Shown here piece after piece: positions 33,255 to 63,910 of a DNA stretch of 64,000 nt. Under the pieces are notes generated by a model that searched no databases, had not been told where the DNA came from, and was given only the letters and a program-made list of their open reading frames with translations. Where the stretch lies: the NCBI GenBank assembly GCA_951406725.2, contig OX597825.1, positions 70,246,001 through 70,310,000 of the forward strand, in the 5' to 3' direction. The DNA is from Octopus vulgaris (lineage: Eukaryota). Each line of letters starts with the position of its first letter. The first letter of the stretch is position 1. Position numbers and translations under genes: made by a program.

Positions 33255-33455
33255 GACCGCGTGTATATCGTTGGCGATTTTCTTTCTCCATCTTCCCTTC
33301 CTTCGACTTTTCCTTTTTCTATGTTTCTGACGAAGAGCTCCGCTCGAAACGTTAAATCCTCTTTTTTTCTTTCCTTTCCTGAGCGTCCAATAACACAATA
33401 CTTGTTCCACGTCCTCGCGTTGTTGTGTTTTCTCTTTGTTCATACTTGGAGTAAC
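33255..33455 (+). mobile_element. TA-embedded short element with a canonical minimal hammerhead (33324-33356)
   Basis: ttt-CTGACGA-a-gagc-tcc-gctc-GAAA-cg-TT-aaa; (TA)n on both flanks. Confidence 0.7.
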
Positions 33456-56731: not shown

Positions 56732-56813
<82 letters not shown>

Positions 56814-56946
56814 GTATAAGTAAAGGTGAAAAAACGACAGAAGGCTTAAATGTTAAAAAATATATATATATTTCCGTCAAAATGTCTGAAGAGTATTAGA
56901 AAATTAAAAAAATTTTTTTTTTCCTTTACAGTGACATAATTTTTTA

Positions 56947-56985
56947 AAGAAAGACCGGTTTCGCATTTAGCTTTTCAAATTTCTT
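56947..56985 (-). ncRNA. Minimal hammerhead in the left PLE arm (U3-A8 core variant)
   Basis: aagaaa-t-TTGAAAA-gc-taaat-gc-GAAA-ccgg-TC-tttctt. Confidence 0.55.
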
Positions 56986-57116
56986 GTGACGTTATGTTTA
57001 TGTTGAATGGACTTAACGTTGTGTTAATGCTCCGGAGAGTTCTAAATAAGGGAAGGTAGTGGGTGATTTCTTCCGGTGTAAGGGAGATAATCGCTTAAAA
57101 ATGTTTTTCCTTTCCC

Positions 57117-58046
57117 TTAATGTGAATTTCTCTGTATCAGTATGTTCGGATGGTTGAGTCTGGGCTTGTACTTTTCAATGAAGAATGTTTCCTTGTTTAG
57201 TCTAATTTGTGTTGATGATCCGAAAGCACATTGGTAAAATGGAAAGATTAAAAATTGTGGTAGTAGTTGCTTTGCGCATTTCTCAATGTGCTCACTAAAA
57301 GGTATCATTCTATATTCTGGGAATGCAATCTGTTGTCGATGCAGTGTGCATCTACGTCTGAGTGATAGCCCCGTGGAACCCACGTAGTCCTGGTGGCAGC
57401 CCGAGCATTTTATGACATAAATTATGTTTTCAGAGGCACAAGTAAAGTTAGATTTGATCTTGAATTTCTGTCCCTCTTTAAAGAGGAATTCTGATCCTTC
57501 TAGCAGGTTAGGACATGTTGCACAGTTCGATCTACCACATTTTTTTACTTTTGCATCCGTAATTTCAGAAGACAATTTTGCCTTGTAGCTTGTAATGATT
57601 TGGTGTATGTTTAGAATTTCCTTTAATTTGGGGTTTTTATGAAGTATTGGTAAATTCTGGGTGATGATGGTGAAGGCTTCTTTGTTTCTGGGGTTGTATG
57701 TAGATATGTAAGGTAGTATTTTCGGGGAAGGTGTGTTGTTGTGTTGAACTTTTCTTAAAGTTTCTATGTTGATTTCTGTTGCACGTCTGATCCTATCCTC
57801 TATGAGTTGAGCTGGGTAATGTCTGTCAATTAGGGTGTTTTTGAGTTCTTGCAGTCTAAAGTTCCTGGTATTTTGTTCTGACTCTATTGTGCATATCCTT
57901 CTTGCAAGGTTGAAGGGGATGTTTGTTTTAGTGTGTCTTGGGTGGCATGAATTAAAGAGAAGGTATTGTTTGGCGTCCGTGGCTTTGTAAAAAATGTCTG
58001 TTTCTATTTTAAGGCTAATTTTTTTAATTAGTATATCCACATACAA
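57117..58046 (-). pseudogene. PLE ORF C-terminal part: RT thumb, Cys-rich linker and GIY-YIG endonuclease
   Basis: TDIFYKATDAKQYLLFNSCHP (PLE RT C-terminus), KKCGRSNCATC zinc-finger-like linker (Neptune), and NIIYVIKCSGCHQDYVGSTG..RR...H (GIY-YIG with CCHH). 5'-truncated. Confidence 0.9.
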
Positions 58047-58319
58047 TTAGTATATCCACATACAATTAGTATATCCACATCCCACATACAAGCAGTTCAA
58101 AACAAAAATATTTCCCATACAGAAATTTTACACACACCACAAACAATAACAACCGTAGATTCCCACACACACACACAACGATCGGGGGCAACAATACCAC
58201 CACTCCCCCGACCAAATACCACACAACCTCACAGACAACTCATACAAACAAAATTACACCCAACATTTTTTAGCCAGGGACCAGGGACACCAGGACACAG
58301 GCTGGAACCTAGTAATAAG

Positions 58320-58836
58320 GAAAAACCGAAAATAATCAATCTTTCAACCAAACCTCTTTCTAACATAAAAATTGACATCCTCTCAAAAGGGCTCAAATTT
58401 ACACCAACTCCACGCAGAGCCAACCTAAATGAAATCAAGGATAATATAACAGAATTTTGCAGAAAATTAAGACTAGCAGAAGCATCAACCAGTTTCAATA
58501 CTGAAGATGAATCACTAGTCAAGAACAAAAGTGAACACATCCCACACAGAGGAAGAAATAAAGATCTTGACGAATTCTGTAACCACATTGAGAACTTTCC
58601 TACCATACTATACATAAACAGAAAGCTAACTCAAATTTTAACACTACACAATGGAAAGAACTGATAGAACTTCAAAATGATGAGGATATAACCATTAAGG
58701 AAGCAGACAAGGGAAATGCAGTTGTAATAATGGATACATCATACTACAGAAATCTTGTAATTTCCTTGCTTGATGACAACCTACATTATGAAAAAATTAC
58801 CAACTACACCCCACAAAAAATAATGAAAACTCTATC
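58320..58836 (+). pseudogene. PLE ORF N-terminal fragment
   Basis: IINLSTKPLS...LSKGLKFTPTP and ITIKEADKGNAVVIMD (DKG motif); appears frameshifted; RT core absent. Confidence 0.85.
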
Positions 58837-59137
58837 TTGAGAAATGCGCAAAGCAACTACTACCACAATTTTTAATCTTTCCATTTTACCAATGTGCTTT
58901 CGGATCATCAACACAAATTAGACTAAACAAGGAAACATTCTTCATTGAAAAGTACAAGCCCAGACTCAACCATCCGAACATACTGATACAGAGAAATTCA
59001 CATTAAGGGAAAGGAAAAAAAAATTTAAGCGATTATCTCCCTTACACCGGAAGAAATCACCCACTACCTTCCCTTATTTAGAACTCTCCGGAGCATTAAC
59101 ACAACGTTAAGTCCATTCAACATAAACATAACGTCAC

Positions 59138-59176
59138 AAGAAATTTGAAAAGCTAAATGCGAAACCGGTCTTTCTT
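59138..59176 (+). ncRNA. Minimal hammerhead in the right PLE arm (identical U3-A8 variant)
   Basis: aagaaatttgaaaagctaaatgcgaaaccggtctttctt. Confidence 0.55.
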
Positions 59177-59453
59177 TAAAAATTATGTCACTGTAAGGGA
59201 AAAAAATTTTTTTTTTAATTTTCTAATACTCTTCACACATTTTGACGCAAATATATATATATATTTTAACATTTAAGCCTTCTGTCGTTTTTTTCACTCT
59301 TTACTATTTTTTATATATTCACCCACGTGCTTTCACAAACCAACTTTCTTATCTATATATATATATATTTTTTTTCATACATATATATATGTATATATAT
59401 GTATATATATATTAATATATATATACTTTATTTAAAAGCAGCAGAAATTCAAC

Positions 59454-60748: not shown

Positions 60749-61021
60749 CCGACAGACAGACGGGCGTCTATGTGGGTATTCATAAGAAATAGTGATAAAA
60801 TTGCAGGGATTTACGATAATGCAGTTAAACAATTTGTTTGCAAATAAAACACGAATAATCTCAAGAAACTTTGTCGGTAAACAGTAAGTAATCTTTAAGT
60901 GGAATAAATTATTTTGATGTGAGCCAAAAGAGAGAAATCTCACGTTTCTCGACGGGCCCTTTGTTTCTTTGTATGGAGAGCACATTATGAGACGTGCGTT
61001 GCACAGCATAGACAGACAGAC

Positions 61022-61078
<57 letters not shown>

Positions 61079-61226
61079 CAAACATACATACATACATACA
61101 TACATGCATACATACATACATGCATACCTGCATATATTTATGTATAAGCACACACAGACACACACACACGTGATCACATACGCATGTATGTATGTATGTA
61201 TATCTATATCTATTTTCTCTACCTTT

Positions 61227-61292
<66 letters not shown>

Positions 61293-61496
61293 ACATATAT
61301 AAATAAATATATCCAATAGTTCCCAATCTTATGGAACTATTTTTGTAGTGCGCATGGCAAAATTTTGGAGGGAAGATTTACGAATTCAAACGTCTATGTA
61401 GGTTTAGCTTTTGCTCACTTTCTTCAAATATTTTGATGTCGCATGGTCAGAAGGTTTGAGGTACGTAGCATTTGATAAATCTTTTTCAATGGAAAG

Positions 61497-61609
61497 CTGT
61501 GCTGATGAAGGATGTGAAATATATATGCAATGTATATGAAATATATATCAAAAATATATATGAAATATATATTCAATATGTTTATAATCCAGAAACATGA
61601 TGTTCACAG
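61497..61609 (+). ncRNA. Type I hammerhead ribozyme, copy 1
   Basis: ctgtg-CTGATGA-a-ggat...atcc-a-GAAA-cat-g-atg-TT-cacag: 5-bp helix I, near-palindromic helix III, GUU triplet. Confidence 0.7.
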
Positions 61610-62129
61610 ATAACCACCAGACTTCGTTTTCGTTATCTATTCCTTCTGTTTTGCGTATGTGAATTACAGGGTTTGTCGTGCCCGGAGTCCAACTTTGATA
61701 GAAATAAGCATTCTTGACTGCTATTTCTATTTTTTCGGTATGCGGTCAAGCAACCTGTTTGCCTGTCCCTTTTTCTTATATACAATATATATACTGAACT
61801 TTACAGAAGTTCCTGCCGGTAATCGGCTATATTTACATACCGAATTCTACCAGTAAATAATTGGGGTTTTTTTAAAAGCCTTTATAGAAATTATTTACTC
61901 TTATTATTATATTACTATTTGGATTTTTCACTCCCTAATGACAACCCAATAGTTCCCAATCTTATGGAACTATTTTTGTAGTGCGCATGGCAAAATTTTG
62001 GAGGGAAGATTTACGAATTCAAACGTCTATGTAGGTTTAGCTTTTGCTCACTTTCTTCAAATATTTTGATGTCGCATGGTCAGAAGGTTTGAGGTACGTA
62101 GCATTTGATAAATCTTTTTCAATGGAAAG

Positions 62130-62242
62130 CTGTGCTGAAGAAGGATGTGAAATATATATGCAATGTATATGAAATATATATCAAAAATATATATGAAATA
62201 TATATTCAATATGTTTATAATCCAGAAACATGATGTTCACAG
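62130..62242 (+). ncRNA. Type I hammerhead ribozyme, copy 2
   Basis: Same as copy 1 but with core CTGAAGA (change at the free N7 position). Confidence 0.7.
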
Positions 62243-62417
62243 ATAACCACCAGACTTCGTTTTCGTTATCTATTCCTTCTGTTTTGCGTATGTGAATTAC
62301 AGGGTTTGTCGTGCCCGGAGTCCAACTTTGATAGAAATAAGCATTCTTGACTGCTATTTCTATTTTTTCGGTATGCGGTCAAGCAACCTGTTTGCCTGTC
62401 CCTTTTTCTTATATACA

Positions 62418-62456
<39 letters not shown>

Positions 62457-62527
62457 CATATATATATACACATATGTATATATATATATATACATATATA
62501 TACTTATATATGTATACATATAAATAC

Positions 62528-62559
<32 letters not shown>

Positions 62560-62762
62560 GCAGATAGATAGATAGATAGATAGATAGATATATAGATACA
62601 TACATACATACATACATACATACATACATACATACATACATACATACGTACACACATGCATACCTGCATATATTTATGTATAAGCACACACAGACACACA
62701 CACAAACATGCGATCACACACGCATGTATGTATGTATATCTATATCTATTTTCTCTACTTTT

Positions 62763-62798
<36 letters not shown>

Positions 62799-62904
62799 AC
62801 ATATATAAACAAATATATATATATTATATATATATATATATACATATATTATATATATTATTATATATGTATTATATATATGGGTATATATATAAATATA
62901 TATT

Positions 62905-63458: not shown

Positions 63459-63513
<55 letters not shown>

Positions 63514-63760
63514 TGAAGCATAGTTGCCACTTAAATGTGGCTAACCCTTAAGGGTGGATGCTACTGTGGGGTGCAGCCCCAGGTGGACACCTCCTCCAGC
63601 TGGCTATTGACACACTTTCTGTATTTGCAAAGAGAAGCCATCCTTCCCATCTTCAGAAAGTGTAACAATAGCCAGCCGGAGGAGGTGTCCACCTGGGGCT
63701 ACAAGCTACAGTAGCATCCGCCCTTAAGGGTTAGCCACATTTAAGTGGCAAATATACTTC
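63514..63760. repeat. Inverted pair of family D repeat (~95-bp arms, ~60-bp spacer)
   Basis: ttgccacttaaatgtggctaacccttaaggg...gctggctatt / aatagccagc...cccttaagggttagccacatttaagtggcaa. Confidence 0.85.
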
Positions 63761-63910
63761 ACGATGCCGTGCAGCTTCTGTTTATACCTCGCTCACAGAT
63801 TTATTGTGTGTGTGTGTGTGTGTATAAGAGGCAATAGGACAATAAAAACCAAGGCAGGACTTGCATCTCAAGTCATTTAGAATATTTAATTAGGATAAGG
63901 TGAATTTGAA

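Follow-up and report, generated by a model that had tools for sequence, protein, structure and literature searches.

Head-to-tail copies descending from RNA circles were proposed in 2014 and 2020 for Penelope-like elements and animal retrozymes (PMC4209133, PMC7229834), and according to a 2026 preprint the mechanism of retrozyme mobilisation is still to be worked out (10.64898/2026.07.22.740005). Metazoan minimal hammerheads are described as cleaving poorly (PMC4209133), and in dimer-type hammerheads helix III is expected to pair between copies (PMC4209133, PMC7229834). Among the Xenopus retrozyme dimers reported in the preprint, one of nine cleaved in vitro and eight did not (10.64898/2026.07.22.740005). 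At AT-rich DNA, both strands are cut and extended by a Penelope-like enzyme, which begins copying at a point within its RNA (PMC11167929). For the anole Penelope-like enzyme in vitro, ribozyme cleavage is dispensable and uncut RNA is the dominant substrate (PMC11167929).

We analysed a 64-kb stretch of Octopus vulgaris DNA (the window), in which an earlier note had picked out two direct repeats of ~480 bp, each with a type I hammerhead in the same orientation. This description holds: the repeats are 481 bp long (61313..61793 and 61946..62426, + strand), are offset by 633 nt with a 152-bp spacer between them, and have one mismatch, T at 61506 and A at 62139, which is the N7 position where the note had noticed one difference within the ribozyme. 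In unit coordinates, where c1 is the first base after the predicted cut and the reference is a natural 643-nt copy, the whole insertion (61313..62426, + strand, 1114 nt) runs from c341 to c188. The repeats are therefore 1.76 head-to-tail turns of one 633-nt non-coding unit, that of what we call family A, and not terminal repeats or LTRs. True LTRs with a 4-bp target duplication were not found; the insertion has type I hammerheads and is a partial tandem in (TA)n. Its 5' end at 61313 is of a variable type, and its 3' end is an internal TA word that runs into a host (TA)n-rich tract, the insertion target (62427..62546). The word used is that at c188 (copy at 62409-62426), which is also present internally at 61776..61793 (+ strand) and is the second commonest 3' end of family A; the commonest, a UUA/UA tract at c305-313, lies at 61900..61918 (+ strand). 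GC content is 33-34% in 2-kb bins around the insertion. As the note had stated, there is no convincing ORF, the longest ATG frame in the unit read as a circle being 38 aa, and a tblastn comparison of the unit with the 781-aa RT and GIY-YIG protein discussed below gave no match.

The surrounding DNA is itself repetitive. A host microsatellite block occurs twice, at 61007-61312 and 62543-62818, on either side of the insertion. These flanking blocks of ~300 bp were considered as a target-site duplication, which we rejected because they show several non-repeat base differences and are followed by a third partial copy; what they represent instead is a tandem duplication of older date. A MITE-like inverted repeat at 63510-63765 has 123-nt arms that are 87% complementary, with a 10-nt spacer.

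A structure-aware scan of both strands of the window returned three matches, the two tandem motifs and a weak, chance-like one at 33327. The first motif (61497..61609, + strand) has its predicted cut after U 61604 and the second (62130..62242, + strand) after 62237, the positions already given in the earlier note. Each is built of helix I CUGUG/CACAG (5 bp), the core CUGA(U/A)GA, helix II GGAU/AUCC (4 bp) with an A on each side, GAAA, and helix III ACAU-G-AUGU with the reported 1-nt loop, followed by U, the cut and CACAG. The core of the second motif, CUGAAGA, is the family form. Because N7 is A in 64 of 65 family A segments, the U7 of the first copy is a private change. The canonical core (C3 U4 G5 A6 N7 G8 A9, G12 A13 A14, A15.1-U16.1 and H17) is present, and to this extent the motif is complete as had been claimed. 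What had been overlooked is that it is atypical, with A·A in place of the G10.1-C11.1 pair and the cut triplet GUU in both motifs (H17 = U). U17 is a weak case for hammerhead cut triplets. Judged by its letters, the core is degenerate on both counts (A·A and GUU), and Rfam at gathering thresholds gave 0 matches for the window hammerheads.

Loop 2 is replaced by a long AU-rich hairpin that extends helix II (61514..61586, + strand) and contains the three tgaaatatata units described before; everything else in the unit makes up loop 1. The short helix I and the palindromic helix III that can pair between copies are those of a minimal, dimeric hammerhead of the kind found in Penelope-like elements. 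Helix III is predicted at -6.4 kcal/mol between copies versus -0.8 as a hairpin, which bears out the suggestion that the ribozyme folds better as a dimer. The predicted cut-to-cut monomer (61605..62237, + strand, 633 nt) is a candidate circular RNA whose fold is closed by helix I. It has an MFE of -174 and a z-score of -7.3 against shuffles (n = 20). All three helices are present in its predicted circular fold, with pair probabilities of 0.4 for helix I, 0.88-0.99 for helix II and 0.38-0.57 for three of the four pairs of helix III. As the note inferred, cleavage at both sites would release a 633-nt RNA, which might then circularise.

The genome searched (2.8 Gb, 227 contigs) is rich in microsatellites. 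The 633-nt unit gave 1462 candidates, 40 of which were scored, yielding 139 matches that are mostly 94-99% identical. A 23-mer from the 3' half of the ribozyme has 447 exact matches genome-wide and none for the reversed-pattern control, and a 14-mer from the 5' half has 504, with 15 for the control. Hundreds of copies, at many tandem loci, thus came out of the genome search that the earlier note had proposed, and their existence supports its assignment of the unit to a retrozyme-like, non-coding, Penelope-linked class. Since there are 447 exact copies, many of them in tandem, and none in the control, the repeat is not a chance one and an assembly slip is unlikely. Family A is a young family of several hundred non-coding units in TA microsatellites. 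Within it, conservation of the core's unbiased 5' half does not clearly exceed background, CUGANGA showing 15 departures in ~1020 cells (1.5%, against a background of 1.5%); the near-invariance of the 3' half was selected by the search pattern. In one subfamily (L222-L231), the second base after the cut is G in 8 of 10 matches, and a helix I pair would become U·G.

We mapped 76 stretches, 24 from the best unit matches and 52 from the pattern matches listed for contigs 1-3. The set amounts to about one third of family A, was chosen for spanning the ribozyme, and includes two stretches that cover one locus. Unit length is 615-646 nt. Copies in both orientations occur in 58 of the 76 stretches, 44 of which have both outward ends in TA, and an arm exceeds one unit in 54 of the 76, the longest reaching 12.3 units. 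The 3' ends join host (TA)n at internal TA words and not at the cut: of 125 TA-flanked ends, 63 are at c305-313, 27 at c188, 7 at c126 and 4 at c428, with the rest scattered. The main site, c305-313, is predicted to be single-stranded in the circle. The 5' ends are spread round the unit, with 18 in the 32-nt bin c545-576 (1-13 in other bins), a cluster that falls at the base of the AU-rich helix II hairpin. In 54 of 57 junctions the two arms cover the same unit positions. Partial tandems, 5' truncation, an inverted 5' arm and a microsatellite target together correspond to what is found for non-autonomous Penelope-like insertions. On balance, we consider it rather probable that family A is a non-autonomous non-LTR retrozyme copied from circular RNA by a Neptune-type enzyme.

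Traces of cutting were sought genome-wide by searching, at the predicted site and at neighbouring positions, for copies with the wrong preceding base, and the matches were classed by hand. The expected U precedes c1 in 471 of 480 copies, which leaves nine without it. Before the cut, 5' junctions made up 0 of 0 matches at c641, 1 of 3 at c642 and 0 of 1 at c643; after it, they made up 5 of 9 at c1 (4 loci), 6 of 7 at c2, 2 of 10 at c3, 4 of 6 at c4 and 2 of 4 at c5. Farther on, all three matches at c10 are 5' junctions, one of doubtful family membership, and the two matches at c33 are unclassified. There are hence 19 junctions at five positions after the cut versus one at three positions before it (binomial p = 0.001). 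This excess is small and hand-classified, and it might have arisen from microhomology (three c4 cases) or because the enzyme stalled at helix I. The pattern counts replace a first tally, in which 1 of 136 5' ends lay no more than 3 nt from the cut, against an expectation of 1.3, and which was biased because its loci had been chosen for spanning the cut. One locus (L205) has repeated ~50-nt pieces of family A that start at or near the cut site. Our reading is that a few per cent of templates may have ended at the cut, most being continuous across it. The junction of a circle has the same sequence as a genomic tandem junction. Of 24 sequencing runs listed for the stretch, 19 contain part of it and none is recorded as RNA, which was given no weight in either direction.

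The main alternative, which is serious though unlikely, keeps the non-autonomous Penelope-like family but has it copied from linear transcripts that ran through tandem donor arrays and stayed uncut; the hammerhead would be weak or vestigial, and no circle would be needed. The 471 copies that read through the cut site are in keeping with such transcripts, as are the degenerate core and the use of uncut RNA as the dominant substrate of a Penelope-like enzyme (PMC11167929). So is the locus L204, where an arm passes through an intact site and begins precisely at the cut that follows, as expected of a partly cut linear multimer. L202 and L203 have both lost the two Us at the cut and, with 3 mismatches in 325, belong to one haplotype; since the two share this TT-less variant, a ribozyme-dead form has spread at least twice, and its arrival at two loci again suits uncut templates. 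On the other hand, arrays copied in this way would presumably shrink with each 5'-truncated round. In all, three copies lack one or both Us exactly at the cut. These, like the excess of 5' ends at c1-c2, would also be accounted for if a cut linear monomer were the template and the enzyme jumped repeatedly from its 5' end back to a 3' end, mimicking a circle. Template jumps are usually untidy. With the expected base in 471 of 480 copies they would need near-constant exactness, and we regard such jumping as very unlikely.

The copies at a locus resemble one another. Copies in one orientation at a locus diverge by 0.87% on average (59 pairs) and copies in its two arms by 1.18% (34 pairs), against 2.50% for copies at different loci (2594 pairs). 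In the same comparison, which was unmasked, the nearest neighbour lay in the same locus for only 32 of 57 segments. With ambiguous columns removed (388 of 643 columns used, 24 family-polymorphic columns), discordance at the 24 columns was 22/3000 within an orientation and 23/1078 between arms, compared with 60268/249866 (24%) between loci. Non-majority alleles carried by all copies of a locus number 172, 14 of them unique to their locus, and 34 haplotypes occur among 59 near-complete loci. Both window copies are without an 11-nt duplication that 118 copies carry, spread over 53 other loci. Uniform haplotypes at a locus, TA targeting, internal priming sites and head-to-head arms had all been overlooked in the earlier note.

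These data also bear on uncut linear templates, under which each of the many haplotypes would need a long donor of its own. Variants private to the two longest arrays were seen in no other sampled locus, which tells against long arrays as donors, and no inherited donor junction or flank could be demonstrated among 57 junctions, with about a third of loci sampled. Four junction pairs match within 3 nt, but one of them (L092) is a repeat inside a single locus, and the remaining three differ in letters, overlap or haplotype, so that descent from a donor is demonstrated for none of them. L161 and L163, considered as donor and daughter for their same junction positions, were dropped because junction letters and haplotypes differ; L041 and L183, whose junctions agree to within one base, have different haplotypes; and L043 and L185 differ in overlap.

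Arrays may also grow as DNA. In the 12- and 6-unit arrays, some variants recur in a subset of the units, a sign of duplication at the DNA level that speaks against a purely rolling origin, and four-gamete conflicts occur in 36 of 262 column pairs. The extreme case, a 12.3-unit array of a 616-nt variant (L089/L167, G000:C1 ~120.155-120.163 Mb), has non-adjacent units that share variants, which suggests unequal exchange and a satellite in the making. Both the subset-shared variants and the four-gamete conflicts could be taken to mean that single-unit insertions were multiplied in place by satellite-like duplication, a route discussed in the 2026 preprint (10.64898/2026.07.22.740005), which would make the tandem uninformative about RNA. 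As a general account this is very unlikely. Array lengths are not integers, 3' ends are fixed at TA and 5' ends vary, most loci have inverted arms, and 142 of the 163 within-locus variants are singletons. For the longest arrays it is probably true in part, and copying from a circle remains our preferred reading for the family as a whole.

Two sister families, B and C, were reached via nested fragments. Both (B, L101-L160; C, L264-L293) are non-coding, homologous to the unit and of the same anatomy, and following them upstream revealed more of the non-coding unit and no ORF. Family B has a 591-nt monomer (z = -5.2, 25 shuffles) with 61% identity to the unit over 324 columns. Its hammerhead, present in 22 of 30 loci, has helix I CCCAUG/CAUGGG, a matched helix II, a palindromic helix III ACGCG(CG)U, mostly A·C at 10.1/11.1 and the triplet GUA. 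In family C, where the hammerhead was reached in 3 of 30 loci, helix I is CCUACG/CGUAGG, a G-C pair stands at 10.1/11.1, helix II is matched, the palindromic helix III is ACGUACGU and the triplet is GUC. Because the strands differ between families A, B and C yet remain matched, all three helices have been kept by compensatory change. Homologous ribozymes with such changes, the one-base difference between the window copies and the hundreds of copies at many tandem loci leave only a negligible chance that the motif is an assembly artefact or a coincidence, in spite of its microsatellite-rich surroundings.

Further variation was seen at individual loci. In L118, a ~200-nt 3' piece of family B occurs three times over, with TA runs in between. 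Unrelated type I hammerheads with a long loop 2 occur in L059 (near 455 and 3057), L058 (near 45), L054, L255 and L258, some of them in inverted pairs, and probably represent more families of a similar kind.

Family A co-occurs in this genome with Penelope-like elements of the autonomous type. A GIY-YIG profile search gave 6136 candidates, 150 of which were scored, and identified a young family with intact 781-aa RT and GIY-YIG frames, (TA)n tails and 715 exact 3' ends. The Atlas neighbours of this protein have the same RT and GIY-YIG make-up. Its linker reads CxxxxCxxC, and we call it Neptune-type by likeness to the CX2-5CxxC motif given for Neptune/Nematis (PMC8557442). The family (L081-L088, e.g. 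G000:C16:33683163-33685505) has many intact 781-aa frames and, upstream but overlapping, a frame that measures 333-479 aa from stop to stop. Its 3' UTR is repetitive, and it carries a U3-A8 hammerhead variant. In the window itself, 3 kb upstream of the insertion, lies a broken Neptune-type element (56770-59350) in the same head-to-head, TA-ended, two-arm form as family A insertions. Its frames (57117-58046, minus strand; 58032-58664, plus strand) are ~50% identical to the 781-aa protein, and each 3' end carries a minimal hammerhead variant with a U3-A8 core, a palindromic helix III and GUC. Read by eye, the 3' UTR of L071 contains a hammerhead-like motif with a possible A3-U8 core and a palindromic helix III, and that of L251 a diverged relative.

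No autonomous partner was recovered by blastn of the unit against 30 GIY-YIG loci, or of families A and B against 28 more. These runs returned only nested copies of the sister families (L058, L250) and weak matches (E 0.01-0.04). Alignments of eight Neptune-type 3' ends were no better than those of shuffles, and a Neptune 3' end adjoins one of 109 family A stretches. Since the 58 GIY-YIG stretches compared, out of 6136 candidates, show no DNA similarity to the unit apart from nested sister-family copies, a Neptune-type enzyme is a candidate partner suggested by target and anatomy.

If copying from a circle is correct, the cycle might run as follows. A tandem copy would be transcribed. The near-palindromic helix III strands of its two hammerheads would pair with each other, and cleavage would take place after GUU, probably at a slow rate or aided by a protein; the structure for this step is seen, and activity is suggested by the indirect genomic trace. 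By analogy with known retrozymes, a host ligase of the RtcB type would close the monomer. The GIY-YIG domain of a Neptune-type enzyme would then make a double-stranded cut in a (TA)n tract, and both of the resulting DNA ends could prime at an exposed UA word inside the RNA, in agreement with the observed end positions. The enzyme would round its template until it fell off. Each arm would come to 0.1-4 or more identical turns and would meet the other head to head, as the anatomy and the uniform haplotypes indicate. A few templates may have been linear and ended at the cut, and the longest arrays appear to have been altered further at the DNA level. A fuller version of this scheme can be offered tentatively, as one possibility that we regard with some doubt, namely that the genome records rolling-circle target-primed reverse transcription. 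The circle would be a parasite with a deliberately slow hammerhead (G-C in family C, A·C in B, A·A and GUU in A) and no sequence in common with autonomous elements, primed at exposed UA words from both ends of the broken TA microsatellite and copied round both ways by a Neptune-type enzyme.

In the literature searched, with supplements and Repbase outside its scope, we found no account of family A or of locus-haplotype evidence for circular templates. The class was known already, and family A adds a member to it. The family offers a few hundred readable insertion events, mapped priming sites and one haplotype per locus, and natural ribozyme-dead variants, stronger-looking sister ribozymes and intact candidate enzymes are available in the same genome. 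Together, these make the choice between a circular and a linear template testable both by genomics and in the tube. Family A is therefore of value because it allows the circular-template model for Penelope-like tandems to be put directly to the test.

Judged by its sequence, family A is a metazoan non-LTR retrozyme. Like the elements described under that name (PMC7229834; 10.64898/2026.07.22.740005), it consists of non-coding tandem units with a type I hammerhead each, and it co-occurs with Penelope-like elements. Those retrozymes have low GC and no LTR, PBS or PPT, and family A likewise lies at low GC and lacks LTR structure; their compact monomer fold leaves the ribozyme formed, and the predicted fold of family A does the same. 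The unit of 615-646 nt is longer than the ~170-400 nt of the invertebrate retrozymes described in these sources, and units of 51-972 bp are given by Li et al. for a set of genomes that come mostly from vertebrates (10.64898/2026.07.22.740005). Family A differs from metazoan retrozymes as portrayed there in the A·A at the base of helix II, the GUU triplet and the long AU hairpin on helix II. Family A also targets (TA)n strictly, has arms that meet head to head and is primed at internal sites, features that do not figure in the accounts of metazoan retrozymes consulted. Unlike the retrozymes portrayed there, family A has no DNA similarity to the pLTR of the autonomous elements sampled.

With Neptune-type Penelope-like elements, as outlined in PMC8557442, family A shares partial tandems, an inverted 5'-truncated arm, a microsatellite target and more than one internal 3' end. 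Like the minimal hammerheads described for Penelope-like elements (PMC4209133), its ribozyme has a palindromic helix III suited to a dimer and an extra base after A9. Unlike Neptune-type elements, it has no ORF, and its C3-G8 core contrasts with the U3-A8 of the Neptune-type elements of the same genome. Priming apparently proceeds by TA microhomology, whereas no homology was involved when the Poseidon enzyme primed in vitro. MRC1 and other non-autonomous Chlamys elements (PMC8557442) resemble family A in being Penelope-like and in forming multicopy head-to-tail insertions in microsatellites. In that account, non-autonomous Chlamys generally share their 3' ends with autonomous partners, which family A does not, and most Chlamys lack canonical hammerheads, family A being the reverse (PMC8557442). 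Plant LTR retrozymes resemble the window locus in having two hammerheads in direct repeats ~600 nt apart, and a circle is proposed for them as it is here for family A (PMC7229834; 10.64898/2026.07.22.740005). As presented in these two sources, however, they have type III hammerheads, true LTRs, a PBS and PPT, 4-bp target duplications and Gypsy partners, whereas family A has type I hammerheads in a partial tandem. Family A is thus not a retrozyme of the plant LTR type, and it is not an autonomous element either.
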